Positions 2 to 38,028 of a stretch of 64,000 bases of DNA are shown here, piece after piece; positions within the stretch are counted from its first letter, which is position 1; the number at the start of each line of letters is the position of its first letter. Made by a program: the position numbers and the translations under genes. The notes beneath the pieces are model-generated. The model worked only from the letters and a program-made list of their open reading frames with translations. It had not been told where the DNA came from and ran no database searches. Source of the stretch: an uncultured Pseudomonadota bacterium (GTDB lineage Bacteria; Oederibacteriota; Muellerivitia; Muellerivitales; Muellerivitaceae). The stretch covers positions 64,001-128,000 of the forward strand of contig CAVYRH010000003.1 in NCBI GenBank assembly GCA_963770835.1. Reading direction: 5' to 3'.

Positions 2-364
2 CCAAGCCAGGATTTTGGAAATATCGGGTCGGTTGTCTCTGCCATTCTGGCGATTGTTTTCCTTATAGGTGGTTTCAAATATCCGGGTGCCCTTAAAAAA
101 ATCTCGATTTTCCTCCTGCTTGTTTTTTTGGGAGCGTGCATCCCCGTTTTTCTTTTTCCGGTTGTGGAAATACTGACGGGATTCCAGGTGTATAGCCAGT
201 TGGTATCTAATAATTGGAAGCTTATAAGTGCGATTTTAGGCGCCTTATTTTCCCCTTCCTTTTGGTATTTGTTTCGTCGAATCAACCCGGACTGGAAAAG
301 GTTGGCTGGCGGCATCCTTATATGGACGATTCTTTCCTGCACATGCCTGTCGCAAAAAGGATAG
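2..364 (+). pseudogene. membrane protein fragment, open from window start and truncated by R1
   Basis: Frame 2 open from base 2, hydrophobic; ends in repeat-encoded CTCLSQKG. Confidence 0.6.
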
Positions 365-372
365 TGTGCAAC
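336..372 (+). repeat. 37-bp dispersed direct repeat R1 (CCTGCACATGCCTGTCGCAAAAAGGATAGTGTGCAAC)
   Basis: Identical to 7 other copies; flanks differ immediately on both sides; TGCACA/TGTGCA inverted ends. Confidence 0.97.
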
Positions 373-653
373 ATGGTATGGGTGGAGATTTGGTGTTGAA
401 GCCTGCCCTCAACCTCAACGTTAGTCGGGAACTGATGAACACCCAAGCCCAATACCAAGCCGCACTGGGTGGAGCATCCAATACGTCTTTTGTGGTGATG
501 GGCGTGAATCCGGCTCCCGTCCTGATGGGACTTTCTGGAAATTTGGAGCTTATGGCTGGAAAGAACTTGAGCCTTTTCATCGGATATAGCGGTTATTTCA
601 GTGGAACGGAGACCCTTAATACCTTCTCGGGGGGTGGAAATATTAATTTTTAG
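373..653 (+). pseudogene. C-terminal fragment of autotransporter-like beta-barrel
   Basis: Alternating beta-strand pattern, terminal Phe (GGGNINF); begins at R1. Confidence 0.6.
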
Positions 654-821
654 GTGGTTAATTTTTGGTTCGCGAGCAACCACAACTTGTTGAGGATGGG
701 TTGAGATTAAATTCCTATATGTTGGAGTTGAGAATTTTAATGAGACTGGAGATCTTGTTGAAAAGCGTTGTATTTCAATTAAATTCTTAATTGAATAAGT
801 TTTTCTTCGGAGGACATAAAT

Positions 822-1484
822 TTGAAAAAGTTTGTCTTTGCAATATTGATTTTCTTTTTTGTTGCCAACGAGGGATTTGCGGGGGAACTTGGATTTGGAG
901 TCAATGCTGGTTTGAACGTTGCTAATCAAGGAATTAATAATTCCCCGGGCAATAATTTTAGTTCTCTTATTGGTTTTACTGGTGGCCTATTTACCGATAT
1001 AAAATTGTTTGATTTTTTGTCTCTTCAATCAGAAGCGGATTTTACAATGAAGGGAATTCAAGATGCCGTTCCTTCTTATCCTGACTATGACACAATGGGT
1101 AATCTATTAGGATTCCCCCGATCTGATTTTTCGTTCAAATATGAATATCTTGAAGTTCCCCTACTACTGAAGGGCAATTTTAATTTGACGCCTCAACTAC
1201 AAATTAATTTATTGTCCGGGCCCTCAGTAGCATTTCTTTTAAATGAAACTACTACTTTGTCACAGCCATCTTTCGACAATTCATTGGCTTCTTCGGCAAG
1301 CGTTGACGATACAAAAGATCATTCTGGAATTGATTGGGGAGTGATATTGGGAGCCGGAATAGAATATCAAAAATTATTATTTGAAATTCGCTATGACCTT
1401 GGGTTGGATTCGGTCAATAAACCTACGTTGGGAATTGTTAAAAACAGCGTTCTATCTTTTGTAGTAGGCTACCGAATTTTTTGA
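822..1484 (+). CDS. outer membrane beta-barrel (PorT-like porin family) protein
   Basis: Signal peptide; GVNAGLN, YLEVPLLLK, RYDLGL motifs; terminal GYRIF; GGAGG RBS. Confidence 0.85.
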   Translation: MKKFVFAILIFFFVANEGFAGELGFGVNAGLNVANQGINNSPGNNFSSLIGFTGGLFTDIKLFDFLSLQSEADFTMKGIQDAVPSYPDYDTMGNLLGFPRSDFSFKYEYLEVPLLLKGNFNLTPQLQINLLSGPSVAFLLNETTTLSQPSFDNSLASSASVDDTKDHSGIDWGVILGAGIEYQKLLFEIRYDLGLDSVNKPTLGIVKNSVLSFVVGYRIF

Positions 1485-1805
1485 CTCACTAGGTTTAAAG
1501 AGTATTCCACTTTTGCACTGTTCTCCCTTCAAGCTCTTGATGGTGATTTATGAATTACTTGCTATCAATTGAGATTTATTCATGCCAAAAGTGTAAAAAG
1601 CCGTTAAAACAATGATTTTATCATTTTAGGTCATCATTTGTGCGAATTTTGAACGGAAGTATGCCTTTGTAAGATCTCACAGGCTTTAACCCTAAGCTCT
1701 AAATTGACAAACTACAAGATGGGCAGTAACGTTTTACTTGCCTTTGTTACTTTGCATGTAACTTTTAACAATATCTAATAGAAACATTTTTTGGTGGAGG
1801 GTTGC

Positions 1806-2471
1806 GTGAAGAAGCAAACCTTAATATTTGCAATTGCTTTTTTTGGGACAAGTTCGTTTCTGTTCGCTCAGGGTTTGAGGTTAGGAGTCGAGGCGGGACC
1901 AAGCTTTACTAATTTTGTTGGCCAACAAGGTAAGTCGGTGACTTCAGTAGGTCTTACTTGGGATGGATATCAAATTGACACCGGATTTACAGGCGGCCTT
2001 TTCGTAGATTGGTTTTTGTTTAACAATTTCTCCATTGAACCGGAAGTGTCTTTTGTTCAAAAAGGCTCCAACCCTCAGTCTACCATCAACAATAGTTCGG
2101 TAAATGACACAAGCAGTTCGGTTTACAGTTTGAATTACTTGGAGTTTTCATTGTTCCCAATGTATCATTTTCCTCTATTGGGCTTTACCGCAAATGTTTT
2201 TGGCGGACCATCCATTGGATTTTTGCTCTCCAACCAGATTCATTTTTTCGATTCCCAGAATTCTATAAATGTCACTTTGAATAACTACACCGGTATAAAC
2301 AATCTTGATTATGGTTTGAATCTTGGCTGTGGCGTTGAGCTTGGGCATTTTTTGCTGAATCTAAAATATCAACTGGGATTGGCGAATATTGAGAATCCTA
2401 ATCCTGGAAGTGGCGGGTTGCTTCCGGTTCAAAACCAAATGTTAACCCTTACCGCAGGTTATTACATTTAA
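1806..2471 (+). CDS. outer membrane beta-barrel (PorT-like) protein, paralog of preceding gene
   Basis: GFTGGLF, LNYLEF, KYQLGL motifs; GGAGG RBS before GTG. Confidence 0.85.
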   Translation: MKKQTLIFAIAFFGTSSFLFAQGLRLGVEAGPSFTNFVGQQGKSVTSVGLTWDGYQIDTGFTGGLFVDWFLFNNFSIEPEVSFVQKGSNPQSTINNSSVNDTSSSVYSLNYLEFSLFPMYHFPLLGFTANVFGGPSIGFLLSNQIHFFDSQNSINVTLNNYTGINNLDYGLNLGCGVELGHFLLNLKYQLGLANIENPNPGSGGLLPVQNQMLTLTAGYYI

Positions 2472-2510
2472 TGAAAAAATTTTAGTGTTCGTTTTACGTA
2501 GGAGAATTTT

Positions 2511-2890
2511 ATGAAAGTGATACTTAAAACGATATTATTTTTTTCGTTAGCAACCCTTTGTTGGTCACAGACTATTTTCACTCCTACGAATACTCCAACC
2601 TCCACACCAACTGCAACGACGACCTTGACACCGACAAATACTACAACTCCTACCCCAACTACCACGCCGTTACGTATTCTGTTTCCTCCTACAAATACAT
2701 CGGATTTCACTTCAAATTCAAACATGTATTTCTTGTGGCACTACGATACCTCGACTGGGTGGGCTCAAATCCCATTCATGCCACACCAAGGAAGTGGAAA
2801 TAATGCAGTAGGATTGTTGGCGCCCGTTACTACCTTTAATGGACAATATGCTGTTGTAAAAGGTCAGGCTCTTCCTACTTCGAATTATTT
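2511..2890 (+). pseudogene. N-terminus of secreted Thr/Pro-rich protein truncated by R2
   Basis: Signal peptide plus TPTNTPT linker; runs into repeat. Confidence 0.7.
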
Positions 2891-2927
2891 CCTGCACATG
2901 CCTGTCGCAAAAAGGATAGTGTGCAAC
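2891..2927 (+). repeat. 37-bp repeat R2
   Basis: Exact copy; truncates ORF starting at 2511. Confidence 0.97.
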
Positions 2928-3144
2928 TGAGATGGACGATACGGTGTTTATGGCTTCACCAACTAATTATTTCAACAACGGGAATAGTGATAGTTCCTTG
3001 ATTAATCCACCAGGGAATGCGAACGGATTGGAATTATCTGATACTGCCGAGTTACAAATTAATCCTGATTATGCGCCGCCAGAGATTTGTAACCAATCGA
3101 TAGGACTTGTTTATTGGAGGTTTACCGATGAATTTGGAAACTAA
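2928..3144 (+). pseudogene. C-terminal gene fragment following R2
   Basis: Open frame from the repeat; stop overlaps start of next gene. Confidence 0.45.
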
Positions 3145-4288
3145 GAAAAATCTCGGACGGTTGTTTTTTTGTTTTTCTTTTTTGGGCTGTTTTTTTGTAA
3201 TTCGAATTCTATTGTCTGCGGAGATCCCAAGCGATGGCGTTTTACTTTCCTTTCAAGGTAAGCCAGCCCAATTTACAGCTAAGGATGGTACAAAAGCCGA
3301 GTTATATGCTTCCGGCAAACAGGTGTGGGTTTGTTTTTTCCCCCCAGGAAAGAAAATGTACCTATTTCCTTGTAATCGGTATTTTTTAACCGGAAAGACT
3401 CCTTCCGGTCAGGATCGGGGATTAGTAGATGATCCAACTGGATTTTTTTTCCAGGATAAGGATGAAAAGAAAGCGGAGTTCATTGTCACGACAAAATCGT
3501 ATGGCGGAGAGTCCTTGGATGTGTTCGGTTGGAACGGCTATTTCTTCACACCCCAACCTTTTTGCCCTCCACATTTGCTTTGGGGAGTTAAGAAGGTGGA
3601 ACGCGAGTACTCAGAAACCTTAGGTCAAGATTATTTCTCGCTCGATTTTATTAATGGTCAAAGGGATATCTACTACGTTCATAACCATTATTTGGTACTA
3701 GGAAATGACGCCTTACTAAAAGTCGGTGAAAAACCCCGCACACAAGATTCTGACATCCTGGAATTAAATTCCCGCGTTGCAAAGGGTGATTGGGAAGGAG
3801 CACTGGATTCGGCAAAAAAGAATCGAAGCGCAAAAAAAGTACCGGGTAAACGAGAGATCATAAGCAATCGTATGCTCCAGGCCATTGATATTGAAAAAGG
3901 TAATTATGACGAGGCTGTGAGCGATTACTTTAAAAAGAATGACGGAACATATAACGAAAAAGCCCTTGCACCCGAGAGTTACGCAATGAGTTATGAATCT
4001 CTGGGAGATCAGTTGATCGTCAGTGGAAAGCTCGCGGAAGCAAAAGGATTTTACGAAAAGGCTATTGAGAATTATCAAAGTGAAATTGAAGGACTAAACA
4101 ACATGGAAGCTTCTTTTTTAAGCGTTTATAAGAATCTCAAATCAGTTCCAAATCTAAAACCACAACAACAAATAACCGATGAATACGCGAAACAACAAAA
4201 AGATTCTTTTGCTAAGTCTGTCGAAAAAGAAAATTCAAATATTGATCGGGTGAAACAAAAAACCGAAATGATCGACGAGCAAAAATAG
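3128..4288 (+). CDS. exported TPR-containing hypothetical protein
   Basis: N-terminal TM segment; TPR-like YESLGDQ...EAKGFYEKAI. Confidence 0.7.
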   Translation: MNLETKKNLGRLFFCFSFLGCFFVIRILLSAEIPSDGVLLSFQGKPAQFTAKDGTKAELYASGKQVWVCFFPPGKKMYLFPCNRYFLTGKTPSGQDRGLVDDPTGFFFQDKDEKKAEFIVTTKSYGGESLDVFGWNGYFFTPQPFCPPHLLWGVKKVEREYSETLGQDYFSLDFINGQRDIYYVHNHYLVLGNDALLKVGEKPRTQDSDILELNSRVAKGDWEGALDSAKKNRSAKKVPGKREIISNRMLQAIDIEKGNYDEAVSDYFKKNDGTYNEKALAPESYAMSYESLGDQLIVSGKLAEAKGFYEKAIENYQSEIEGLNNMEASFLSVYKNLKSVPNLKPQQQITDEYAKQQKDSFAKSVEKENSNIDRVKQKTEMIDEQK

Positions 4289-4390
4289 AATTTTTTTGGT
4301 TGAATTAGAAATTTTTACCGAGTTATTGGTCTTGAGCGAGGGTTTGAAATGTGGAGTTTAAAACTATCAGCCCTAAAAGCGGTTATTAAC

Positions 4391-5150
4391 ATGGCAAAAA
4401 AAGTATTCAAATTATTTATGGTTATTTATCTTTTTCAAGGCATTTCGGCCTTGGAGGCGCAGCAGGCTTTTCAGTTCTTACAATTTACCGACAATCCCAC
4501 CTACCAATCCGATTATAATTTACCTTCAACCGACCCGCTTTATGACAGCTTGGCTGGCTTGACAGCGACAAAATTTTTGAGCGATCCAGCCCCTTCTGAA
4601 TGGGCTTCAGTGCCAAGTGTCTTGGTTTGTGATTCATTTGCGAACCGGATAGTTTGGAAAGCCTGGGATACGGCCGCAAATGCATATGGTTTTAATGCTT
4701 ATTCCCATGGTTTTTCAAATCCCCAAGGAATTGCGGCCCGCAGTAACGGCCAAATTTACGTCGTGGACTCGAACAACAACCAAATAGTCCAACTTTCCTA
4801 CAACGCGGGCACCATTAATTTTGTATCCCAGTTTGGGTCGACTGGTCATGCGCCCGGCCAATTTGTTTCTCCCATGGGAATTTCTTTAGATCAAAGCGGA
4901 AATATCTATGTGGCGGATTCTGGAAACAATCGAATTCAAAAATTCGATTCCAACGGGCATCCAATTAATTCATTCATGACTCCTAGCGGCCAAAATCTGC
5001 AATCCGAACCTACAAACTGTATCGGTCCATTTTTTGGGGGGCCGTTTGGAACCCCTCGCGGGATCACGGCTAGTTATTTAGATGGTAGTATTTACGTCGC
5101 CGACACCACTGGGAATATTGCGAAATTCGATTCATCCGGGAACTTGATTA
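4391..5150 (+). pseudogene. secreted NHL-repeat protein N-terminus truncated by R3
   Basis: PxGI...IYVADSGNNRIQKFD repeats. Confidence 0.85.
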
Positions 5151-5187
5151 CCTGCACATGCCTGTCGCAAAAAGGATAGTGTGCAAC
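5151..5187 (+). repeat. 37-bp repeat R3
   Basis: Exact copy; truncates NHL-repeat ORF. Confidence 0.97.
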
Positions 5188-5248
5188 CCCCTACGCCGCC
5201 TAACCCATTTCCTTCACCAACACCGACACATCCATAAGGAGTTTATTT

Positions 5249-5902
5249 TTGAAAACATCCAATCAAAAAAATGAATTCAAATACCTTTATGGTGGCCATT
5301 ATGGGGGTCATCTTTTTCAATTATTCATTAACACTTTGTTCTTTGTTGCGTTCGGGTTAACTCATCACTACGATCACACCTTTTTCCCATTTGCGATAAT
5401 CCTGGGAATTTTTTGGATTGTCTTTGCAGTCCTTTTCTTAAAACGTATCAGTAACTTCCATACTTTGAAAAGGAATACCTATTTAAATGATTATTTAACC
5501 CAAAGATTTTATGAGTTGATGATGTTGGTCTTTGTGCCATTTTTTTTCTACTTTGTCTTTAATAAGGAGATATTTCTGTGGGTCTCTAGTTTGTTAGCAA
5601 TCTTGTATTGTTTTGAACATTTTTACATTAGGTATTCGGCCGAAAAATTAAATTTAAAACACCAAAGTATTTGGGCGGTTCGAATAGTTGTTTTTTCATG
5701 CGTCTTTTTTTATTTGTTTTTGATTTACACTTTTCGAAAATTTTTGCCTGATTTTTCTGGATTGATATGGAATCAGTTTTTTCTGGCTTCGGTGCTGACA
5801 CTGGTAATTGAAAGAATTTTGATGACTGTTTTGGGAGTAAGGGAAGGGAAAAAAATCATTTTTGATTTTTGGCAAAGGGCAACAAGTTTTAAAAAAATCT
5901 GA
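5249..5902 (+). CDS. multi-pass membrane hypothetical protein (possible immunity)
   Basis: About 6 hydrophobic segments; AAGGAG RBS; follows short Pro/Thr C-terminal tail at 5188-5238. Confidence 0.65.
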   Translation: MKTSNQKNEFKYLYGGHYGGHLFQLFINTLFFVAFGLTHHYDHTFFPFAIILGIFWIVFAVLFLKRISNFHTLKRNTYLNDYLTQRFYELMMLVFVPFFFYFVFNKEIFLWVSSLLAILYCFEHFYIRYSAEKLNLKHQSIWAVRIVVFSCVFFYLFLIYTFRKFLPDFSGLIWNQFFLASVLTLVIERILMTVLGVREGKKIIFDFWQRATSFKKI

Positions 5903-5991
5903 TACTCGAAGCCTTAGGGTAAATGCAAAGCAAAAAACATTCTACTTTATTCACATTCGGCTTGTTCTAAGCCAAAACTGGAGGAGATTTA

Positions 5992-6540
5992 ATGCGATTC
6001 AATAAAAAAGAATATTGGGTCTTTGGTTTCTTGGGGGTTTTGTTTGGGAATGTTCCACTTATGGCGCAGGAGATAAAACCAACGCCTTTACTCCAAAAAC
6101 CTATTGTCTGCAAATGGACGACTCTTGGCGGGATGCGTTATTTCTTTGCGGGCAAGCGAATCGAAGGAAAGGACTTGGAACAAACTATTTTTTCCCTAAA
6201 GGATATGGAGGCCACCAAACTTTTGAAACAATCCGAGGATTGTGAAACTCTCGGTTGGTTTGGAATCGGCATCGGGGTTCCTTTGATGGTGGCCGGAGTT
6301 GTTGGGCTAGCGAATACCGCTACGAATAATCCGAACGTGGTTAACCCCCTTTGGGCGAGCACGGGACTTGGCGGGGCAGTGATTGGAGTAGCCGGGTCCT
6401 TTTTGCTGATCCAGGGAAGGACTTCCCAATTTGCCGCAGTGCAGCGTTATAACGCCGTAATCCATGATGAAGGGGATATGTCTTTTAACCCAAGGCCGAA
6501 AACGTCAGTACCTTTGTTGACTCTAAGCGCGAAGTTTTAA
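5992..6540 (+). CDS. exported/membrane hypothetical protein
   Basis: GGAGG RBS, signal peptide, two Gly-rich TM segments. Confidence 0.7.
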   Translation: MRFNKKEYWVFGFLGVLFGNVPLMAQEIKPTPLLQKPIVCKWTTLGGMRYFFAGKRIEGKDLEQTIFSLKDMEATKLLKQSEDCETLGWFGIGIGVPLMVAGVVGLANTATNNPNVVNPLWASTGLGGAVIGVAGSFLLIQGRTSQFAAVQRYNAVIHDEGDMSFNPRPKTSVPLLTLSAKF

Positions 6541-6606
6541 CCTGTTGATTTTGTTTTGAGGGTGGGTTTGTAAAAGCAAGTTTTTAACCAAGTTTTTTGA
6601 AACGCG

Positions 6607-6985
6607 ATGGATATGAAAAAATATTGGATTTTAACCTTATATTTCATTCTCGAGGCCGGGATAGCGTGCGCCCAGACCCCGACCACATGGCCGTTTTTCA
6701 AGAACGACGTTTATCGTTCTTCTGAGCAGACGTTTGATAAAATCGCCATTAATTCCACGAACCTGTCCTTGAAATGGCAGACAACCACCCTAGGGCTGGC
6801 TAATGCTGTCGCTTATTCTTCCCCGGTCATATCCCTTGCAAACGTCTATATTGCTGCCTTGGACGGGAATATTTATGCCTACCAAAACAACCCCGTATTG
6901 GGTTCCTCCACCATCAACCCACCCCTTTGGCATTACAAAACGGACGCGCCAATCTATGGGACGCCTGCTGTTTTTGATATAGGAA
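6607..6985 (+). pseudogene. PQQ-like beta-propeller secreted protein N-terminus truncated by R4
   Basis: WPFFKND, LKWQT, YSSPVI, DGNIYAY, LWHYKT motifs. Confidence 0.8.
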
Positions 6986-7022
6986 CCTGCACATGCCTGT
7001 CGCAAAAAGGATAGTGTGCAAC
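6986..7022 (+). repeat. 37-bp repeat R4
   Basis: Exact copy; truncates PQQ-like ORF. Confidence 0.97.
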
Positions 7023-7395
7023 TTTTTGGGGTCCCGGCTTGCAATACAATGGATCAGGCGATTATGCGACTGCTGGTTACTTCGCAGGAACACCGACATC
7101 AATTGGACAATCAGGAGGAGGTTTTGGTTTGGGTGCTGCCGCGAGTGCAGGGGGTGGTTTTTGGGTTTCTAATGCGAATTCTATTTATGATTTAAACGGG
7201 CCATTTAATCTCTTCAACATTTATTTACCATTTACGACCATCAGCTTTTCGACTGGAACTGGAAGTCAAGGACAGTCGATATGGCAAGCTGGTTTTAGTT
7301 TTGGACCTTTTGGAGGTGTTGGTATTTCAGATTACACAACAACAACAGAAGGCTCGATGAACTCGGTCTCGAGTGGGTGTCCTCATGCACCGTAG
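7023..7395 (+). pseudogene. orphan C-terminal tip of polymorphic (RHS-type) toxin
   Basis: Gly/Ser-rich CT fragment starting at R4; overlaps downstream small gene. Confidence 0.5.
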
Positions 7396-7771
7396 TAATT
7401 TGATCGACCTTTTCATTGTCTTTTTCACTCCGGTTTTTATCGGCGCATTTCTTTTCCAATTTATTTTCAGAAGAAAGGAGCAAATTTTATTCAAGTTTGA
7501 GATTCTGCCAGCGCAGCTGAGGATTCATATTTTCCCGTTTTTTTGGTTGAGCTTCAATTACGACACTTTTGAATCGTTGGAAATCGCTCCATTTGGAAAA
7601 TCCTTCTCGACTATTTTTCGATTTAATATTCGGCTGATGAATGATGGGATTTATATAAAAAGGAATCGGGGGTTAATCCGTGAATTTTTTATCGGCCCCA
7701 ATGATGTCGAAAAATTCTTCCAAAAACTAAATGCGGTGGTTTCCGATTTCAAAACACAAAATGAACGTTAA
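7385..7771 (+). CDS. small membrane protein, putative immunity
   Basis: Overlaps stop of the toxin tip; N-terminal TM. Confidence 0.55.
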   Translation: MHRSNLIDLFIVFFTPVFIGAFLFQFIFRRKEQILFKFEILPAQLRIHIFPFFWLSFNYDTFESLEIAPFGKSFSTIFRFNIRLMNDGIYIKRNRGLIREFFIGPNDVEKFFQKLNAVVSDFKTQNER

Positions 7772-7869
7772 AAATCATGCTGGCTTATACTTTAAAAACG
7801 GTGGAGGATGAGAAGGAAATCAAAGAACTAAATAAAAATTGATCTGGTAATAGATAAAAGGGGGTTTGG

Positions 7870-9631
7870 ATGCTCAAGTCGACGGGAAATCAGGGAAGCT
7901 TTTACGACGCGGATTACGTATGCGAGCAGTTGATCCCGAAGGATAGCTTCTACCGTAAATTCAGGGTAATGGTGTCCCCACTGGTTCAGGATGCTGGTCT
8001 GGATGAGATGTATTGCCAGGACAACGGCCGCCCTCCTATTTCTCCCTCTCTCCTGGCCATGGCGACAATACTTCAATTTTATAGGGGGTTTTCCGACAGG
8101 GATATGGAGAGGGCCTGCATGTTCGACATCGAGATCAAGTACGCCCTTGGGCTTCGGTTGGACGAGCGGCCCTTCGACCATTCTTCCTTAGGCGATTTCA
8201 GGGAACGCCTTCTTCAAAACAGCCGGGAGAAAGAGATTTTCGACACGATACTTGAACACCTGATCGAAAAGGGGTTGGTCAAGAAGGATGAAATCCAACG
8301 CATTGACGCCACCCATGTTTTGGCCGACCTCGCCATCCCCACCATGGTGACCCTGGTGAAGAAAGGGATATTCGAGGTTCTCAAGCCCTTGAGCAAGAAC
8401 AAGGAAGTATATGAGGGATTGGGTAAGGATGTGGATTTGCGCGAATACAACAAGGAAAAGGTCAACGACGAAGGCCCTGGAAGAATGGACCTGGAGAAAA
8501 GGAAACGCAAATTGGTGGAGGTGGTGGGTGACGCCCACAAGGTGCTGGAACACGTAAGAACCCTAAAGACCAACAAAGACCTGAAGGAGCCCATTGAGAT
8601 GCTCAAGACGGATACTCCGGGAGAACATCGAGGAAGACGAAGAAGGTAATCCCAAGGAGAGAGGCTACAAGGAGAAACCAAAGGACATCATGGTTTCTCC
8701 CATTGACCCGGATGCCAGGTTTGGGGCGAAATCCGCCACCAAGCACTTCATGGGTTACAAGGCCAACATCACGGAAAGCGTCGGAAACAACATCATCACC
8801 AACGTCAAGGTCATGCGGGGAAACGCCCATGACGCGACGACCATGGTGGAGGCCATCGTTGAGCAAAAAGAGCAGGGACTTGTTCCGGCCAAGGTTATCG
8901 GTGATGCGGCTTATGGGCGAACGATCAACCGGGAAGAATTGAAGACAAACGGCACGATGGTGGTGGCCCCCATTTACAACAAGAACGACCGAGCCAAGGG
9001 GATATACCCCAAGAGCATGTTCAAATACGACGCGAAAAAGAAGCTTTTGACCTGTCCCCAGGGCGTGACGACCAAGGCGGCCTATTGGGACAAGCTTCAC
9101 CAGCTTTACAACTTCCATTTCCCAATGGCGAAATGCAACGCCTGTCCTGTGCAGAAAGAATGTACCCGTGACGCCGACGGGCGGCGGACGGTGGGAATCA
9201 GCATTAGGCATGAGGAGATGATGGAGGCGGAGACCTATAACAGGTCGTCACAGTACAAAAAAGAAATGAAATTACGCCCGGCTGTTGAAAGAAAGCTTGG
9301 CGGAGTTGGTCCGGTATCACGGCATGAGGCGGGCGAGATACCGGGGATTAAAGAAGTTGGGCCTGCAATGCTTCTTCACGGCGGCGGCGGTGAATATCAA
9401 AAGATGGATCAAGCTGATTTCGGGCGAAAGTCCAGGTCTTTCCTGTGCCGGAATGGCGTGAAAAGGCAAACCAGAAGAGATTTAAAAGGCCAAGCAGAGA
9501 AGAAAAGAAGGGAACCGGAAAAATGACTATGGTAGCCAACGAAAAACCGAGGGAGTTTTGGGTGGATTTGATCTGCCAAGATCAAGTTGTGCCCCATCCC
9601 GAAAACTTAACCTGGGTTTTCCGACGGTCTC
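7870..9631 (+). mobile_element. IS1182-family-like insertion sequence with frameshifted DDE transposase
   Basis: GRPPISP, PFDHSSLGDFRERL, IDATH, DPDARFG, GYKANI, GDAAYG, RPAVER motifs; right end TTTTCCGACGGTCTC at 9631; left end unresolved; frameshifts near 8610 and 9297. Confidence 0.85.
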
Positions 9632-10272: not shown

Positions 10273-10281
10273 CTTTTAGAT

Positions 10282-10836: not shown

Positions 10837-10924
10837 TTAGCAAATAAACTAACTTTCTTGAATCGAACCTTTTTGGGGGATAATTACCAAACAAGTTTCT
10901 TGTCCAATAATTTTGGGAGTGAAA

Positions 10925-11206: not shown

Positions 11207-11249
11207 GGGTTCGAGGTTCAAAAACGCTTTTCCAGAGGAAGTTAATTGA

Positions 11250-11286
11250 CCTGCACATGCCTGTCGCAAAAAGGATAGTGTGCAAC
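11250..11286 (+). repeat. 37-bp repeat R5
   Basis: Exact copy; directly followed by an internal piece of the IS3 element. Confidence 0.97.
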
Positions 11287-25144: not shown

Positions 25145-25146
25145 CC

Positions 25147-25970: not shown

Positions 25971-26007
25971 CCTGCACATGCCTGTCGCAAAAAGGATAGT
26001 GTGCAAC
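25971..26007 (+). repeat. 37-bp repeat R7
   Basis: Exact copy; preceded by structured non-coding DNA, followed by mid-gene malectin/RHS sequence. Confidence 0.97.
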
Positions 26008-29000
26008 CCCTTTATGAGACCTGGCGCGAGGACAACACGGTGGAGTACGACTTCGACGTTCCCCCGGGCCTCTACCAGGTTAACTGCCACTGGGCCGAAA
26101 CCACCTACGATACCCCGGGTGAAAGGGAGTTCAACGTCCTGGCGGACGGCCAAACCCTGGTTTCCCCCGTGGACCTGCTCACCCTGACGCCCGAGGGTAA
26201 CGCCTACAACACGAGTTTCTACGACATAAATGTCCAACTGCCCCAACCTCAATTCCTGGGTTTGGATGGCAACGAAAACCCAATCTACAGCGCGGTGCCT
26301 CCCTATGGGATTCTTGCCCTGAAGTTCGTGAAGACCAAGGGCTCCTTGGGCGGGGCGATGATTTCGGCCCTTGAGGTCATCGGGGAACAGCCCGTGCCCA
26401 CCATCACCCCGACGGGCACTTACACCCCGCCCCCGACCATCACCTTCACCCCAACGCCCAGCCCCACGTCCACGCCCAGCCCCACCCCGGCGGCCGCCGG
26501 GCCTTCTCCGACCTACACCTTCACGCCCAGCCCAACGGGCACCCTGGTGCCTCTTACGAACACCCCAACAGCCACTCCAACTGTATCTCCCACAGCTTCA
26601 TTCACCCCCGTTACCGGAGCCTATACGGCCCGCTTGGAGATGGTTGGGCCCAACGTTGTTTCCCGGGCAACACCTGGACCACGGACCAGGAGTACAGCTA
26701 CGGCGGGGCAGGATGGCTCATCGAGGGCCAGCCCGTTTATACGACCGACCCCATTTCCGGCATAGGCCAGGCCAGCGTTTCGCTTTTCCAGTATTACCGT
26801 GAGGGCCCGGCTCCCCCGTCCGGCTTTGGCCCAGCGCTGGAATACCGCTTCGACGTTCCGAACGGCCAATACCAGGTCACCCTCAACTTCGCCGAGGCAG
26901 AAAACCTCCAAGCCGGGGCGCGAGTATTCAGTGTTTTGGCCCAAGGGCTGACGGTCATTTCCAACCTGGATATTTACAAAACGGTTGGCTTTGAGACGGC
27001 CTTGAGCCAAACCTTCCTTACCACCGTCAACAATGGAACCCTCGACCTCCAGTGGATCGCTTCGGTGGGCAACGCCACCATTTCTTCCATCCAGGTCTTA
27101 GGCCAGCAAGTACTTCAGACCCCGACATCGACCCGCACGCCCGTTTCCGGGGCCCTCGATATCCCGGTGAACGTGGGGGGAACCTCCTTCACCGATTCAA
27201 CCAACAAAACCTGGTTCGCTGACCAAGCTTATACCTCCGGTGGTTATGGTTACGTGAACCCCCAATCGGCCTTCTTCACCAGCGACACGGTGGATGGGGC
27301 GGCTCTCAAGGACCAGCCGCTTTACCAGGATTGGCGGGAAGGCACCAGCCTGGAATACGAATTCACCGTTCCCAACGGCAGCTACCAAGTGAACCTCTAC
27401 TGGAACCAGATCGCGGACACGCCCGGCGAGTATAACTTCAACGTCCTTACCCAGGGCCAGACGGTCGGCTCCAACCTTGACCTTTCCTTCGAGGGCCCTT
27501 ATTTCAGCGCCGTGACCCAGTCCTTCTACGACGCAGCCGTGACCAACGGCATTTTCGACGTCCAACTGGATTCTCCCACGGATTTCGCGGCCTTAGCCGG
27601 CATTGAGGTCATCGGGGAACAGTCCAACCCCACGGCGACCTTCACGCCCACGGCAACTCCCAGTTTGACCCCAACCGGTACACCCACAATAAGTCCCACT
27701 CCCACTGGCACTTGGTACACCTCCACGCCCACCGGAACCCCGACACCCACCGCTGTTCCACCAGCCTTGTTCGCCTCCGTGGATTACGTCCAGGAACTTC
27801 CCCCCAATTCCACCGCGACGGTCACTGCTGATGGCGCCCGGGTGACCACCCGGATCAACATCATCGGAACCGCCAACGGCAACTTCTCCCCCGCGCCGCA
27901 AGGATCGGCATCCAAAGCGGTTGGTTCCTGCTCTACCAGCCCGTCAGCGGGACGGGTACGGCGGTGACCATCGCCACGGGCACCAACCAGGTCAACGAAG
28001 GTGTCTTGGGAACCCTCGACCCGACCCTTCTCTTGAATGGAACCTATAACTTATTGCTTTTGGCCATGCAGCCGGATGGGACCAACACCAACTGGGTTGT
28101 GGCCAACATCAGCATCGACGGCAACCAGAAGGTGGGGAATTTCACCCTTTCCTTCACCGACCTTAACGTGCCCGTTTCAGGCCTCCCGATGCAAGTGGTA
28201 CGAACCTATGACAGCCGAAACCAGAACCAGGGGGATTTTGGCATCGGATGGACCCTGGATATCCACAACGTCCAGGTGGAGGAATCGGGGGTGATGGGCG
28301 ACGGATGGCAATCGGTCATTCAAGCCGGAACCGGATTAGATGGCGCGTTCAGACAAATCTTCATATCCTCCACCCAATCCCATTTCGTGGACATTGTATT
28401 GGGCAACGGAAAGGTTTACTCCTTCGAGCCGCATTTCCTGGATGTCTCAGACAACGACGTGGCGCCCGGAGGGAAGGGGGAACAGGATATATCGGGCGGT
28501 ACTTACGGGGTGTTATTCAAACCCCTGTTCGGAACCGCGCCCAACTGCACCCTGGTACCCATAGGCGGAAATGGCAAGCCTGTGACGGACGTCTCTGCCA
28601 ACAGCTCGCCCGACGTCGTTCCCGATGTGCTTAATTGGTCGGATGCTTCGGACTCGGTGAACGACATTAACGGAAGTTACGATCCACAAAGGTTCCTCTT
28701 CACCGATGAAGCCGGCAACCAGTACATCGTGAACACCTCCACGGGCCTGGAACAGATGACGGCCCTCAATGGGGATATGTTAAAAGTGGACAACGCCGGC
28801 ATCCACTGGGTCAGCGCTTCCCAAGCCGGCCATAAGGACATCCTCTTTACCCGGGATAACTTCGGCCGCATCCAGCAGATCCAGGACCCCGCGGGGAACC
28901 TGTACCACTACAGCTATACCGACGGCAAGGGCAACCTGACGGCCTTCCAGGATCCGGCGGGCGCGGCCAAGAGGGCAAATGGACACTTATACATACAACA

Positions 29001-32000
29001 ATACCCACGGGCTCTTGGCCATCAAGGACCCCCTGCTCCAGACGCCCATCCGAAACGACTACGACGCCAATGGCAGGCTCGTCGACACCTACGACGCGAA
29101 CAACAACAAGATCACCTACAATTACAACCTGGCCGCCAACAGTGAATCGGTGACCGACCGGGCGGACGCGCCCACCAGCTATGTCTACGACGACGAGGGG
29201 AACGTTACCCAGGAAACCGACCCCCTGGGCAATGTGACCCATTACACCTATTCGTCCGACGGGTTCAACAACAAGACCAGCGAGCTTTTGCCGGGCAACT
29301 CGAGGGCCAACACTTATATCTACGGCGACCCCAACAACCCCCGCAGCATCACCGAGCAGGTCGACCCCGATGGCGACAAGACCTTTTACACCTACGACGG
29401 CCAGGGCCATGTACTGACGACGACCGACCCCAACGGCAACGTGGCCACCAATACCTACGACATCCACGGAAATCTTACGTCAAGCAAGGCCGCCCAGGAT
29501 CAGCCGCCTTCCGGCTACCAGTACGACCCCAATAGCAACTTGCTCCAGCAAACCGACCCGGCGGGGATCGTGACAGCCTACGGTTACGATTCCTCGGGCA
29601 ACCAGAATGCGGTGACGGTGGCCTATGGCCGCGCCAAACAGCAGGTCACCACTTACACTTACGATTCCAACGGCAACCGTTTAAGCCAGACGCTAAACAA
29701 CCCATCCGGGTAAGGCAACCAAACAACCCTCTACCAGTACGACGGCAACAACCGGCTGGTCACCACCATCTACCCTGACGGCACCAACACCAGCACCACC
29801 TACGATGCACTGGGCCACACGGTTTCCACGACGGACCAGAAGACAAGGGTGACTTTACATTATTACGATCCCATGGGCCGTGCCACGACCATCCAATACC
29901 CCGACAACCGCAAGAGCGTATACGACTACGACGTCAACGGGAACCGCCAGGACGACACCGAATACGGCACGGATGGAATATCCCGGAATACCCATACGGA
30001 TTACGACCAGGACAACCGGCCCTACGAGGTGGACTATACCATCGGCTCGACCCAGTCAAAATACAACCCTGGCCAAGGGGCGGTAACCCAGTTCGAGGAC
30101 GAAAACAACAACTTCACCTACAAGTATTACGACCAGGCCGGCCGCGCGACGTCCATCCTCGCCGGGGCTGGGGGCATCAACCAGGAAACCCAATACGGCT
30201 ACGACCCGAACGGCAACCAGACGGCAGTTACCGTGGCGAATCAAGTGCAGTCCAACACGGGTTACGACAGCCTCAATCGGGCCGCCACCGTCACCTACCC
30301 CTCCCCAGGGACAAATGTTGCCACCCATCATCACGACCTATGACCCGGATGGGCGGAAACTGAACCAGAACGACCTGGCTGGCAAGGTGACCAACTACGG
30401 CTACGACGGCCTGGGGCGCTTGACGGGCGTAACCCTGGTTTCATCCTCCGGCAACCAGGGCGAAAGCTACACCTACGACCAGGCGGGCGACGAGTTGAGC
30501 CAGACTGACGCCAACGGCCACACCACCCGCTACACCTACGACAACATGAACCGGCGCAAGAGCCGCACCCTTCCGGGCGGCCAAAAACGAGACCTACAAC
30601 AGCTACGACGCCACGGGCAACTTGACGTCCAAGACGACCTTCAACGGCCAGGTAATCGCCTACGCCTATACCCAGCTGGACGATAAACTTCAAACGGAGT
30701 CCCTGCCCGAGTACAACATCACCTTCAATTACGACGACTTCCTTCGCCGCCAGAGCATGACGGACGTGAGCGGGACAACCACCTACAATTACGATTCAAG
30801 GGACAGGATGACGGCCAAACAAGGCCCCGAGGGCACTCTTTCCTACACCTACTACAACCACGGGGAATTGGAGAGCGTTAAATCCTCTCTACCAACGGCA
30901 CTAACGTCAGTTACACATACGACTCCCTGAACCGGCTGACGACGGTGAATGACACCCATTGGACCGGGAATACAAGTTACACCTACGACCCCTTCGGCAA
31001 CCTGGCTTCCGTCAACAAGCCCAACGGCGAATCGGTGACTTACACCTATGACGTTTTGAACCGCCTGAACAGCATGGCGGCCACGGTCAACGGTTCGTCC
31101 ATTCGTTCCTACACCTACACTTTGGGCCCGAATGGCAACAGGACAAATGTGGCCCCGCAGCTCTCCAACCGGGCCGTGACCTACACCTACGACGACTTAT
31201 ATCGTCTCACGGGGGAAATTGTATCGAGTGACCCGGCGACCCAGAATATCGGGGCCATCAGCTACCAGTATGACGCCGTAGGGAACCGCACCAACCGGAC
31301 ATCGGGGATCACGGCCATTTCAAGCCAATCCCCGTCTTATGACGCCGGTGGGGACGACCGCATGACCTCGGACGGAACTTCCAGTTATTCCTATGACGCC
31401 AACGGCTCCACCACCCAAATAGGGCCAAACACTTACGCTTTTGACAGTTTAGGCCGGATGACCCAGGCCACGGTGGGGGACCACAACGACCACTTATGTT
31501 TACGATGGCGACGGGAACAAGATCCAGCAGGTGGTGAACAACGGGACGGGACCAGTGACCACAAGTTACCTAGTGGATTCCACCAACCCCACCGGCTACG
31601 CCCAGGTGCTTGAGGAAAACCAGGGTAGCGGTGTGAATTTGGTTTACACCTATGGTTCCAGCCGGATAAGTGAAGACCAGTACAACGGGACAAGTTGGAA
31701 TTTGAGCTTCTATGGCTATGACGGTCAAGGATCAGTGAGGTATTTGACCGACTCCCGCTTGGAACTAAAACGGATACTTACGATTACGATGCGTTTGGGA
31801 CACTTATTAACCAGACCCAGCCGTGGGTGCGCCCACCCCGAATGAGTTTTTCTTCGATGCCGAGCAATTAGATGGGAATTCAGGTTTCTACAACCTAAGA
31901 GCGCGTTGGATGAATGTTGGAATTGGAAGGTTCCAAACGATGGACAGTTTTGAAGGGCGTCAACAACCCCATTGAGTTTGCATAAATATGAATTTTCAGC

Positions 32001-32620
32001 CAATAATCCGATAAATAACTCCGATTCGAATGGCCATGAGTACGACATGGGAAGCTTGTCTTTTTCAGTAGCGGTGGTTGGGGTTTTATCCTCATTTCCT
32101 ACCATTGCTAACGCTGGAACTCCCCAGGGAAAAGAAGCCGCCATTATTTTGTTGATACAAGATTTCAATAATGCTTCGGCAGATACTGGAATTAACGTAA
32201 ACGTTTTAGGTTCATTGGGATGGTCTGAAAGTCAGAAAATCCAATCAATGCACTTGGTTATTGGGATAGAAATACCCACAATAGTCCAAGGGCGCATGGA
32301 ATAATGCAGTTGTATGATGAAGATGGCAAGCCTGGAGAATATGCGAATTTAAGTGATTCCCAAAATATCGAAAAAGGAGCAAAAATTCTTAAATCAAAAG
32401 TAAGTGATGCGAAGAGAATTCACTCACTCCCTTTATGGACATAATCTAACTCCTGATGAGTTAAATGATCCTTGGTTTATACCAGTAGCTCTTTATAAGG
32501 CTAGCTTGGGACAATAGAAGAGCATGGGAAACGAAAATATACAGTTCTTGGCCCGTATGTAAAAGTCCGCAGGAAACCTCTGCGTTACTGCAAACACTTT
32601 GGAGACAATATGCAAATTAA
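26008..32620 (+). pseudogene. giant malectin-domain RHS/YD-repeat protein, 5'-truncated at R7, multiply frameshifted, with SLT-like C-terminus
   Basis: Malectin repeats (QPLY..WRE), PT linkers, RTYDSR..GDFGIGW, YD repeats, YEFSANNPINNSDSNGH core end. Confidence 0.85.
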
Positions 32621-32641
32621 GCAATCAGAAAGGATGACCTT

Positions 32642-33199
32642 GTGAAATTATCTAAAAATTTAGGTTTAATATTTTTGATTTTTATAGGTTCGGAAACAAG
32701 TTTATTTGCTGGGTCTCAAGATAAAGTTAATGTGACCATCAAGAATTTATCGATGGAAAGCCTATAAATGAATTTATTCATTTTGAGCTCATTATTTATT
32801 CGATGTCCGAAAAAGAAGGGAATAAATGGTTGTTAACCAGAAGAAACCTTTTCGACTATTGAGGATCAGAAGTATACAACCGTAAATTTGTCTCAAACCA
32901 GGTCAAATGATGATTATACGACGCCTTATATTAAAGACGTCAAATGGGTTCCTGGAAAAAAACTGAAATGCACTTATGAACCTTATAACTGTGGAATGGA
33001 TGTTAAGTTGACTGCGAAGAAGGGAAATGGCGGTAAATATGATTGGGATGTTTATTGTGTTGGTTCTTACAAAATAAATGACGTTGGTACGACACATAAA
33101 TGGGAGTTTAAAAGTACGAGAAATACGACACTCGAATTTAATAAATTGCAATTTCAAGCCATATATTACAGAAAAGATGAAAAAGGCGGGTTGAATTGA
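32642..33199 (+). CDS. exported protein, putative immunity (frameshifted)
   Basis: Signal-like start after the RHS tip; 3' ORF 32888-33199. Confidence 0.45.
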
Positions 33200-33307
33200 A
33201 AAGGCAAATTATTAAACTCTTTTCAATCATGCTTGTCATGGGATTGGTTTGCGATACCGCCTTCGCCTCTCCACAGCCTACCGCGGTCAACGTTCACATT
33301 CAGCGTT

Positions 33308-34368
<1,061 letters not shown>

Positions 34369-37246
34369 TACTTCCTATACCGATCCGGCAGGGAGGTCGT
34401 TCAAATACGCTTATGCGGCCAACGGTATCGACCTGACCAGCGTGACGGATAGCCAAGGCGACCAACTTTGGGCCGGGCAGTACAATTCCATGCATCAGCA
34501 AGTGGTAGTTACGAATGTTGCCGGAAAAAGTTGGCACTATTCCTACAATGGCTTTGGACAGCCGACAGGAATTACGGCTCCTTTAGGTGAAACGACAACT
34601 TTAAATTACGACACTAGTAATCAGCTTTCTTCCCTGATCCCACCCCAGTCCGGGGCTGGTGTGACCTTAGGTTACGATACTCTTGGCCGAGTGCAAAATA
34701 TTAGCAGTGCGGACAAAGGAACGGTTAACTACGCTTACGACGACGGGAACCGTTTGACTCAGGCTAATTACCCGGATGGAACCACTGCCGGGTTAGGATA
34801 TACCAACTGGACCCTGACCAGCGCCCAGGATCGCCTGGGCCAGACTACGAGCTTCAGCTACGATTCCAACCAACGGTTAACGAGCTCGAGAACCCCCAAC
34901 CAACAGACCACTCAATACGGTTGGAGCGCGGGGGGAGGGTTAAGCTCTCTAGCCGATCCAGCTGGAAACCAAACAAGTTATCAACGCGACCTAATGGGGA
35001 GGGTGCTGAACAAAGCTTCTTCCGATGGGTCACAATATTCCTATCGTTATGGTTCCAACGGCGGCATGCTTTCGCAAGTGACTGACCCGTTGGGCCAGGT
35101 GACCCAATATTCACACACCGTGGATGGAAAGATTTTGGGGGTTAATTATCAGAACACCCAAAACCCCACCCCTGGTACTACCTACCAATATGATTCAGTC
35201 TTGGGCAGGGTGGCAACAATGGTGGATGGAACCGGTTATACGACCTATTCCTACAACCCTGTGGGCCAGGTTGGTGGTGGATTGTTGAAATCGGTTGCAA
35301 GCCCCGTTGGCCAAACCACAGCTTTCACCACTTATGCCTACGACAGCGACGGAAGAGTGGTGCAAAGGGCCATTGACGGCGTCCCGGAGACCTATACCTA
35401 TAATTCCCAAGGCCAATTGGTGGAAGTGACCAACCCCCTGGGGGACCCCAAGTTGAGTTATGACTCAAACACGGGAAGGCTGGTTTCGGTGGCCGACAGC
35501 ACAACGGGACAAGCGACCCAATACGAATATTATAATCCTACTGATCCAAACGGGGCTTCAGGACGTTTGAAAAGCATTACCAACTTGAATAAGAGCAACC
35601 AGGCCGTTTCGTCCTTTAATTACTCCTATGACCAGCTTGGACGAATCACCAATTGGGGCCAGAGCCAAGGTGGGACGTCAAAAACCTATGCCGTTGGCTA
35701 CAATCCCGCAAACCAATTGAAGGGGGTGACGATGGTTTCGGGCACCAATGGATTCGATGGCCTCACAGCGGGCCAGGTCGTAAGTTATCAGTACGATAGG
35801 GCGGGAAATCGGGTGTCCGAAAATACTCCCACTTACCAAAATGGTTTTGGCACACCTAACAATCTTAACCAATTGAATCAAGTATCCTCAAACCCCCTGT
35901 CGATGAGCTTGATTACGGATAATTCGCCCGGTGAAGCGGCCCAGATCAATGGCCGGATGGCCCCGATTTCTGGTAATGGCACGGTAGCCTCCAGTATTGT
36001 GCCCAGCGCGAGTAGCACGACAACCAGCGCCGAGGTGGTGCTGACGGAACCCAACGGGGCCACCACCGCTGTGGGTGTAACCCTCCTCAACAAACAGCCC
36101 GTAAGTTTCGATGCCAATGGTAACTGCACTTCTGACAATCAGTACAGTTACGTGAGTGATGGGGTGAACCGGCCCATTGCTATCAATAACGGAAATGTCC
36201 TGCCCGGCGGTACGGCAGACACATTGGTTATGAAATACGACGGTAAAGGGAGGCGGGTGGGACTCACGGCCTTAAATTTGGGTGGGCCGGTGACGAACTT
36301 AAATCAACTTTCAGGTGCAGCCACGGTCTCGGGCAAGACTTATGTGTGGTGTGGGAACAGGATTTGTGAGGAAAGAGACGCAACAGGCAAACAGGTACTC
36401 AAAAGGTTCTTTTCCAACGGCGAGCAAGACAATGGACAAAACCTGTACTATACAAAGGACCATCTGGGAAGTGTTCGTGAGGTGATGGATGCTTCCGGAA
36501 ACATCCAAGGTCAGTTTGATTATGATCCGTGGGGCAGGCAGACCCAAATAGCCGGAACTATGCAGCCTTCGTTTGGCTACACTGGTCATTTTCAGGAACC
36601 GACGACAGGGTTACTGCTTTCCAAATATCGTGTCTATAACGCGGATATGGGAAGGTGGACATCGGGAGACCCAAAAGGGCAGGTCGCGGGAGCAAACATT
36701 TATTCTTATGTCAGGAATAATCCGCTTGGTAAGATTGATCAACTTGGGTTAGATGGTGATGATTACGAATCGTCTGATAACACATCGGATGAAGATACTA
36801 GTGACAATACTGTGGCTGTGGCTGGTGGAATTTTAAAATCATTTGCTGGGGTGGTTGATTTTGTTTATGGAGCGGGTGAAGTTGCTTTGTCATTAGCAGA
36901 TGAGGGAACTACAGCCCCACTTGGTGTTCTTACAATGGGCACGGGTTTTTATGATATGGTGACCGGAGCAATTCAAACGGGCGTCGATCTTGCTGGGAAT
37001 AATTATGTAGTCGATCCGGCAAGTCAACTTTTGGAACAAAAAGGATTTAGAGATTTGGGTCCAATGTTGTGGACCAGTCAGGTAGGGCTAGATGCTCTCC
37101 AAGGTACTACTGGAAATATTATTGGAGGTCTTTTAGATTTTGGAGGAATCAGTTGCGACTATGTGGCATTGCAAACTGGAGCTCAATATTATTGTCCTTT
37201 TTTGGGAACAAGCACCCCTGAAAAAAATCCATGGTATAGACACTAA
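34369..37246 (+). CDS. RHS/YD-repeat protein with RHS core and variable C-terminal tip (5' part hidden by artefact)
   Basis: YD repeats; DHLGSVR, YDPWG, FGYTGH, RVYNADMGRWTSGDP, NIYSYVRNNPLGKIDQLGL. Confidence 0.9.
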
Positions 37247-37261
37247 CAGCTAGGAGGAGAA

Positions 37262-37991
37262 ATGAATTCTCAGAGATTTTTAAAAGATCTGCTACTTTTA
37301 ATAATCATTCCAGGGAGTATCGGCGCAATAATGTTTTTTTTTAATGAAACAATTGTGAATGCTAGCATGAAATTTGCTTTTTTAATTGACAAGGATAAAA
37401 GAGAACAACATGGGAAAATGCTAAAATTGACTTATAAAAGTGTTGGGTTGGTTTGCATGTGTTTTTCGCTATTGATTCTTTTAATTGTGATTTTCTTGCT
37501 TAAAAAAAATTGATTTAACCCGTAATGAAAATTGAATTAAAGGGACGGAAATTTGAATGATTTAACGGCATATTTATTCATATCCATTATTTTAATGGCT
37601 TTGGGTATTTTTGTTTTTTTTGCAACGCGTTTTGTTTTAGATGAAGTTGGGGAAAAATTTAAGAAAAATTCAAAATTAGCAATTGGTCTCACGAATATAG
37701 GAAGTTTTTTACTGGTCTTTTTGGGAGTTTTGTTTTTGCTTAAATATTTTAATCGCATTTGATTTTAATGAACTACAACGGACTATTGGATAGAAGCATA
37801 GTAGTGATAATTTTTTCAGGTGTCTTGGGGGGGTTATTGTTTTTTATTGCCGAGCCAATGGCGAACTTTGGAAAAAGCTTCTTATTTTTTGATAGATAAG
37901 GAAAAAGAGAAGCGCGTGCAAAAAAATTAGTCAGGGTCACGAAATTCACGGGATTGTTTTTTATGTTTATTTCGTTAATGGATTTTATTTT
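37262..37991 (+). CDS. three tandem small two-TM immunity-like genes (37262-37513, 37553-37762, 37768-37991 with internal stop)
   Basis: Similar TM-basic loop-TM layout; third one abuts R8. Confidence 0.6.
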
Positions 37992-38028
37992 CCTGCACAT
38001 GCCTGTCGCAAAAAGGATAGTGTGCAAC
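37992..38028 (+). repeat. 37-bp repeat R8
   Basis: Exact copy; last in window. Confidence 0.97.

Follow-up and report, generated by a model that had tools for sequence, protein, structure and literature searches.

Spacers acquired by CRISPR adaptation have a fixed length, which is one of its basic properties, and integrons and CALINs (clusters of attC sites lacking integron-integrases) gather accessory genes, mostly in one orientation, at a fixed site. As stated in two papers, a Cas1-family enzyme, the casposase, integrates both ends of long DNA with duplication of its target (PMC6977970), and the type II-A Cas1-Cas2 alone, lacking Cas9 as its trimming partner, integrates untrimmed, longer substrates in vitro (PMC8034620). 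Here we analysed a 64,000-nt stretch (hereafter the window, C3:64001-128000; C numbers are contigs of the source genome, G000) of an uncultured soil bacterium (GCA_963770835.1), in which a 37-bp direct repeat separates kilobase-sized pieces of DNA. An earlier note made from the window alone had offered two readings, an undescribed system that integrates multi-kb pieces with duplication of the repeat and one that leaves the 37-mer as a scar at rearrangement junctions, and the first of these is supported by the finding of cas1 and cas2 just outside the window. We propose, with a probability of about 0.75, that a stand-alone Cas1-Cas2 adaptation module devoid of a fixed spacer length inserts long DNA and thereby duplicates its CRISPR-type 37-mer.

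The repeat and the cas1-cas2 module

The eight identical, same-strand copies of the repeat described in the window, as well as the lengths of the intervals between them, were confirmed (Table 1), and a control search with the reversed pattern gave 0 matches. Identity is lost sharply at the borders of the 37-mer, where the flanks diverge at once on both sides. The earlier note had placed the CRISPR-like start of the repeat (GTTGCAC) on the reverse strand; this has to be corrected, as the array reads on the + strand with the leader at the cas2 side. The whole genome holds 27 copies in four clusters (arrays A to D), 25 with at most one mismatch and two with five mismatches. The 37-mer has short paired ends (z about -2). 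At the repeat, an Rfam scan matched neither a CRISPR nor any other family, its sole matches being pieces of group II introns, and a 20-mer periodicity scan found no ordinary CRISPR array in the source genome (4.6 Mb, 96% complete, non-Patescibacteria).

The absence of cas genes holds for the window itself, but the stop codon of a cas2 gene is located 2,185 bp upstream of its first base, and inspection of this array end revealed a cas1-cas2 pair. The module is a 1504-bp unit made of a 28-bp site, cas1, cas2, a 22-nt leader and the repeat, which starts 22 nt past the cas2 stop codon, and of nothing else. It is present at three places (99.7–99.9% identical), in addition to one 5'-truncated copy, and the corresponding four repeat copies have this upstream cas DNA in common. 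These four modules provide the only Cas1 matches in the genome and two of them are intact (C15, C16). In array A the first cas1 has an internal TAG and the second is devoid of its 5' part, hence this array is probably now served in trans. Each module has a different first piece behind its leader, and a promoter scan around the module gave no signal above shuffled sequences.

The Cas1 protein matches PF01867 (3e-68) and TIGR00287 (251 bits for a cut-off of 72), and none of the Cas1 subtype models reaches its own cut-off. Its nearest solved structures are PDB 4n06 (E 1e-34) and 7cr6 (E 6e-33), and its acidic and His motifs, which we take to be catalytic, align with those of known Cas1 proteins. 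The 111-amino-acid product of cas2 matches PF09827 below the cut-off (E 0.021). Its structural model (pLDDT 76) presents the ferredoxin order of secondary structures, with top Foldseek matches mostly titled Cas2 or Cas1-Cas2 complexes, and the protein is predicted on this basis to have the Cas2 fold. RAMP, Cas4, Cas12f/TnpB, Cas9 and Cas3-HD had no match in the 96% complete source genome, a search that did not extend to Cas10, other Cas12 types and Cas13; Cas3 is present in two other genomes (G014 and G048), on other contigs or far off.

The 37-mer was also found behind cas2 in independent assemblies and runs, which answers the call of the earlier note for a search in related genomes. Scans with this Cas1 returned 12 genome loci and 13 metagenome loci, with amino acid identities of 96–100% in the candidate division FCPU426 and 62–71% in Patescibacteria. 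A related 37-mer lies 2–45 nt past the cas2 stop codon in all 16 loci read (FCPU426, Patescibacteria and metagenomes), and this spacing is kept in loci outside FCPU426 where Cas2 identity goes down to 23–53%. In all full-length loci cas2 follows cas1, and 7 of the 16 have at least two repeat copies in the fetched DNA; the start-to-start spacings in locus L015 are 250, 2563, 181, 616, 4044, 423 and 177 bp. In a FastTree phylogeny of 61 Cas1 sequences (15 from the loci and 46 library representatives of 300–370 aa among the best 60), a clade of 17 (support 0.86) contains all 15 locus proteins, the FCPU426 pair being nested, and is itself part of a long-branched group of 25 (0.997). The repeat is carried by 7 of 30 further genomes of the family (by none of the 3 that belong to the same genus), and this Cas1 is encoded by 4 of these 7 vs none of the 23 repeat-free ones. 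The 97–100% identity across four genera implies an apparently recent horizontal spread of the module. This Cas1 clade was not found in viral contigs, and the 158 plasmid records with a Cas1 match were all below 60% identity (best about 33%).

A 28-bp 11-6-11 palindrome is located at the start of each of the three full modules. Such sites occur at about 70 places in the genome, where they bound co-oriented cassettes, and are also found in the window at 39118-46866, past the array. The single resolvase-type recombinase match of the source genome (C17:12078-12905) lies 15 bp from a 28-bp site; of its 12 tyrosine recombinase matches, considered as another candidate for the enzyme of these sites, one is near such sites. 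A mini-cassette of genome G023 (L023:3917-4000, G023:C23) is a putative non-autonomous capture site: it is devoid of cas genes, and its repeat is preceded by a 28-bp site and by about 40 nt from the end of cas2 and the leader. IS110 and group II intron copies are inserted right behind 28-bp sites; the intron at window positions 20592-21411, about 820 bp long after an internal deletion, recurs at many cassette sites, and the one at 42081-43869, past the array, encodes a reverse transcriptase.

Facing repeats were observed at C3:400723-400905 (109 bp apart) and in another genome (G049:C170:52252-52469, about 144 bp apart). An origin by inversion of the inverted copy in the first pair (C3:400723/400869) was discarded after the inversion test failed. 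The same ATACC-rich degenerate tandem DNA, cut at differing points, precedes repeats in two genera (C3:383050-383300; L083 before 8199). We also considered the head of array B as a broken chromosome end and rejected it; the tandem DNA ahead of this array is probably mobile, since it flanks a repeat in G049 too.

Intervals, donor DNA and fragment ends

Intervals were measured between consecutive same-strand copies in seven genomes, leaving out single copies, pairs on opposite strands and pairs separated by more than about 30 kb; later insertions of insertion sequences (IS), introns or cassettes lengthen some of them and nested arrays split others. The resulting 68 intervals range from 30 to 26097 bp with a median of 1802 bp (5 at 51–200 bp, 17 at 201–1000 bp, 30 at 1–5 kb and 14 above 5 kb), and with 2 of 68 at 50 bp or less they do not have the short, near-constant length of spacers. 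The 30- and 38-bp intervals (L021:2426-2455 and 3607-3644; G023:C12) lie within an array of kilobase intervals, and the seven intervals of up to 110 bp, these two included, had no match elsewhere in the DNA compared.

A donor search, which the earlier note had proposed for each interval, showed that several flanks in the source genome match other sites of this genome at 83–100% identity, where the DNA is continuous without the repeat. Among the intact donors are cas1, with cuts at nt 387 and 711, an IS3 that was cut at two different places, an RHS gene and 6.2 kb of C12. In the window, donors are readable for 6 of the 16 flanks at 4 of the 8 repeats, and in no case does the opposite flank follow in the donor. 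At these four repeats plain insertion is thus excluded, in line with the initial claim that this is not a simple insertion of a miniature inverted-repeat transposable element (MITE); the contiguous flanks in homologues that would have contradicted this claim were not found there. At their cut points the donors hold neither the repeat nor half of it, no protospacer-adjacent motif (PAM) was evident by eye at about 17 donor junctions, and there is no target duplication besides the repeat. A search for reciprocal joins of any left with any right flank found none, and no two repeats have the same right flank.

Further junctions came from Logan contigs of three public soil runs (X1–X3) belonging to two studies, of unrecorded library type and with X1 perhaps not independent. 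These contigs have loose ends exactly at the repeat borders and hold both uninterrupted donors and repeats with other flanks. X2 and X3 each have cas2, leader and the whole repeat on a single contig, and in X3 a repeat is also joined to the beginning of interval D1, a junction of the source genome. Two pieces cross genera at 100% identity: an 885-bp piece is identical to the inside of an interval of genome G004, in opposite orientation and with other ends, and a 559-bp interval of G048 to the central part of an IS gene that is intact in the source genome. They could come from common mobile DNA or from mis-binning. The 885-bp piece, the only interval sequence searched against a phage collection, had no match there.

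The fragment ends themselves carry a weak signature. Flanks were pooled, de-duplicated and read toward the 3' end joined to the repeat, after removal of 15 left flanks ending like the leader. At position -5, A is present in 78 of 159 ends (39/69 left, 39/90 right; background 0.26), and T at -7 in 63 (29 left, 34 right; background 0.28). G at -4 is found in 15 ends (6 left, 9 right) and C at -3 in 8 (3 left, 5 right), each for a background of 0.23. Among 63 new ends from held-out loci (30 left, 33 right) the counts were 27 for A at -5, 6 for G at -4, 4 for C at -3 and 25 for T at -7, with pooled p values of 0.01, 0.01, 0.002 and 0.048, respectively, single sides being mostly borderline. Random interval positions gave 27, 23, 23 and 28% in the same order, with no such bias. 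Since the signature is alike on left and right ends, was replicated and is not seen at random positions, a single enzyme site appears to choose both ends of the fragment. The A/T preference there would be explained by the short, frayed 3' end that Cas1 holds.

Arrays mostly hold one variant of the repeat, and this variant changes from locus to locus (8/8 in L015, 3/3 in L018, 3/3 in L085), as expected if a resident repeat is copied. Array B of the source genome reads outer repeat, 1061 bp, variant, 7805 bp, variant, 213 bp, outer repeat, and on G048:C27 two leader-type repeats bracket 10.5 kb with two repeats of another variant. Interval A2 is a 5'-cut cas1-cas2 ending exactly at the leader, and B2 is made of a repeat, 23 bp of cas1, an IS3 and a variant repeat. 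Such mixing fits the capture of DNA already holding an array, which would also account for the truncated cas1-cas2 in A2 and for orphan arrays.

The intervals of the window hold surface and RHS-type genes, IS and a piece of cassette array, and from the first to the last repeat their GC content is 47.8%, compared with 54.5% for the genome. Most of the gene cuts listed in the earlier note were recovered: Pfam agrees for the NHL gene (4349-) and the GmrSD_N/DUF262 gene (13381-) and recognises malectin-RHS pieces, and the cut IS3 is established by identity to intact IS3 copies. Removal of a DDE IS (~7860-9633) and an IS200 (~10280-10831) does bring the 4227-bp interval to about 1.9 kb. The gene taken for a PQQ protein gave only a weak beta-propeller match under the cut-off, the cut of a beta-propeller-like gene at the end of A6 being upheld, and the autotransporter was not confirmed, the two adjacent genes coding for outer-membrane protein (OMP) beta-barrels. 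The 478-amino-acid frame through copy 9 could be chance; the 37-mer is open in two of three reading frames. The poly-T run in A10, the only homopolymer of at least 60 nt in the genome, is probably a read artefact.

Outside the window, A1 contains methyltransferase, SRAP and UmuC genes. B3 contains, between two variant repeats, an apparently whole norB-hemerythrin-Crp-ScdA region for nitric-oxide handling (L003:7301-15105, C3:385301-393105). D1 holds, on the opposite strand, a spoIID-queA-tgt region that resembles the genome's own copy at 70%, and D2 matches C12, which has a TraG/VirD4 gene. Islands resembling integrative and conjugative elements (ICE; TraG/VirD4, ArdC, RadC and a toxin-antitoxin pair) on C12, C17 and C3:400900-420503 overlap cassette and repeat arrays, and may be a source of donor DNA.

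Table 1. Repeat arrays of the source genome and features of the window (window coordinates unless a contig is named)
Feature	Position	Strand	Remarks
Array A	C3:48634-102028		11 copies; copies 4-11 inside window
Array B	C3:383301-400905		8 copies + 1 inverted
Array C	C15		4 copies
Array D	C16		3 copies
Interval A3, 3' end	1..335	+	A3 is 2460 bp, first piece after upstream cas2; same DNA as part of array B
37-bp repeat, copy 4/11, array A	336..372	+	left flank continues uninterrupted at C3:394696
Interval A4	373..2890	+	2518 bp; two OMP beta-barrel genes
37-bp repeat, copy 5, array A	2891..2927	+	exact match
Interval A5	2928..5150	+	2223 bp; TPR-like gene and 3'-cut NHL gene
37-bp repeat, copy 6, array A	5151..5187	+	cuts NHL-repeat gene
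Interval A6	5188..6985	+	1798 bp; cut beta-propeller-like gene at end
37-bp repeat, copy 7, array A	6986..7022	+	public runs have both flanks uninterrupted, and unrelated to each other (loose ends of X1 behind L049:11985 and of X2 before L049:12023)
Interval A7	7023..11249	+	4227 bp; DDE IS and IS200; last 1622 bp 99.6% identical to part of A3
37-bp repeat, copy 8, array A	11250..11286	+	right flank begins within IS3
Interval A8	11287..13788	+	2502 bp; IS3 piece, PD-(D/E)XK gene, 3'-cut GmrSD_N (DUF262) gene
478-aa frame	13381..14817	+	GmrSD_N, repeat, FecR-domain gene
37-bp repeat, copy 9, array A	13789..13825	+	open in frame across repeat
Interval A9	13826..25970	+	12145 bp; piece of 28-bp-site cassette array with IS110, group II intron fragment, IS3
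Six co-oriented 28-bp (11-6-11) palindromic sites in A9	16556..23286	+	starts 16556, 17893, 19904, 20584, 22014, 23259
37-bp repeat, copy 10, array A	25971..26007	+	exact match
Interval A10	26008..37991	+	11984 bp; malectin/RHS gene pieces; contains poly-T run
Poly-T run, then A/T blocks	33310..34280		971 nt, inside RHS gene
37-bp repeat, copy 11, last of array A	37992..38028	+	right-flank homologue continues uninterrupted on C9

Possible origins of the arrays

In the mechanism that we propose, Cas1-Cas2 would bind both free 3' ends of one long linear DNA, with a preference for A/T-rich ends, and would join these ends to both borders of the leader-proximal repeat, which repair would then duplicate. 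Donors would mostly be conjugative-element, IS and cassette DNA, with some chromosomal DNA from relatives, and captured pieces already holding repeats would give rise to nested and orphan arrays. A broader version, to which we give somewhat less than even odds, is that a CRISPR integrase was exapted for general gene capture: it would insert arbitrary DNA, from tens of bases to tens of kb and up to whole operons (such as the 7.8-kb norB region), into a repeat read through from the cas operon, would have spread between genera as a cassette of a serine-recombinase-type array and been exchanged with Patescibacteria, and gene halves would become fused through the repeat.

Several observations weigh against capture by Cas1-Cas2. 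Nine of the 16 related loci have one repeat copy in the fetched DNA, some at contig ends, and 3 of the 7 repeat-bearing family genomes, in a set 86–96% complete, are devoid of this Cas1. In the source genome, arrays B and D begin without a leader, the repeat at C16:37439 has no further copy in 26.7 kb, and the repeat at C3:400869 is inverted. Three arrays hold mixed repeat variants. No contig among those listed from the public runs spans a whole junction of the window, and no orthologous arrays with common older pieces, from which polarity at the leader end would be read, were found among the intervals compared. Finally, 38 FCPU426-family intervals are co-oriented with their array, 9 are opposite and 17 unclear (n=64), by a crude open-reading-frame rule applied to non-independent pieces, and random two-ended capture predicts no strand bias; in Patescibacteria-type intervals the same rule gave 2, 2 and 4 (n=8). 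As the leader is only a few bases long, our preferred cause for this excess is selection for read-through out of the cas operon rather than local rearrangement, and this is the point of which we are least sure. If correct, the arrays would be an integron-like gene store and not an immune memory.

Strong co-orientation is also what speaks for the unlikely possibility that the same Cas1-Cas2 links one end of the chromosome or of an island at a time to one side of a repeat, the arrays being scars of local deletions, circles and re-insertions in cassette islands and the module a selfish or by-product rearranger. An interval would then not represent one captured piece. The layouts of A2 and B2, the location of several donors inside arrays or their islands and the existence of lone, orphan and inverted repeats point the same way. 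This possibility is hard to reconcile with the donors, in which no left flank is contiguous with any right flank, with the lack of a right flank common to two repeats, and with the failed inversion test at C3:400723/400869. Opposite-strand pieces such as D1, the piece common with another genus in opposite orientation, and the compact uniform arrays of Patescibacteria-type loci such as L015 also argue against it.

It is still less probable, and in our view very doubtful, that the 37-mer is a crossover site or MITE-like scar left by another recombinase, either the enzyme acting at the 28-bp sites or an IS transposase, with cas1-cas2 as a passenger. The module does sit in a recombinase-type cassette array rich in IS, the repeat has short paired ends, and the three genomes with the repeat and without this Cas1 would be expected; but the donor cut points hold neither a repeat copy nor a half-copy, the repeat stays 2–45 nt behind cas2 despite the divergence of Cas2, nothing but the repeat is duplicated and flanks were never contiguous where tested. 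The explanation that we find hardest to credit is an artefact of assembly or library, with long reads that are chimeras fused at an adapter or that were collapsed at a repeat. The poly-T run and the frameshifted RHS pieces do reveal low-quality stretches in the contig, and the window junctions are unbridged in the public contigs listed. Against this, the same layout is found with sequence-diverged repeats in many independent records, X2 and X3 bear the cas2-leader-repeat order and X3 the repeat with the start of D1, and a symmetric end signature is unexpected from chimeras; the occurrence of the 37-mer behind cas2 in independent assemblies and runs also disposes of the adapter or barcode match that the earlier note had envisaged.

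Significance and comparison with known systems

We found no description of kilobase spacers in the literature, judged mostly from abstracts, with few subscription papers and no supplements. If our reading is correct, this natural Cas1-Cas2 would insert kilobase DNA at a single defined 37-bp site and require almost nothing of the sequence of the ends. It would illustrate a way of losing length control, close the gap that separates casposases from spacer integrases, and give soil bacteria a route to keep DNA from mobile elements and relatives without homology. The two-gene, 1.5-kb module would be a candidate tool for site-specific insertion or for recording of long DNA fragments, and the end signature is a direct prediction for a first biochemical test.

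Unlike integron cassettes, the pieces are cut at arbitrary points, often within genes, and bring along no attC site, and the enzyme does not belong to the tyrosine recombinases. A MITE or IS end would leave contiguous flanks in an empty site, which was not seen at 4 of the 8 window repeats. Casposases, according to PMC6977970, work without Cas2 on the ends of their own element with a target of about 14 bp, whereas the present module has a Cas2, its duplication is of 37 bp and the ends are arbitrary DNA. Moreover, the 1504-bp unit holds only cas1, cas2, leader and repeat after its 28-bp site, with neither PolB nor terminal inverted repeats, and such a 1.5-kb module is too small for the casposon polymerase gene (PolB). 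The type II-A experiments used designed oligonucleotide prespacers in vitro and spacers stayed at 30–31 bp in vivo (PMC8034620), in contrast to the gene-sized pieces found here in genomes.

CRISPR adaptation itself differs from this system by its spacer length, the intervals here being 30 bp to 26 kb, and by its leader, here of only 2–45 nt; instead of a PAM at donor sites, we observed a symmetric internal end signature. With no Cas4 and no effector among the families searched, the system also departs from CRISPR-Cas. On the other hand, the Cas1 motifs, the predicted Cas2 fold, the 37-bp repeat with paired ends, the exact borders and the first repeat adjoining the cas genes are all as in CRISPR adaptation. 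Taken together, these comparisons set the system apart from CRISPR-Cas, by spacer length and effector, and from casposons, integrons and MITEs, as one that works like CRISPR adaptation.

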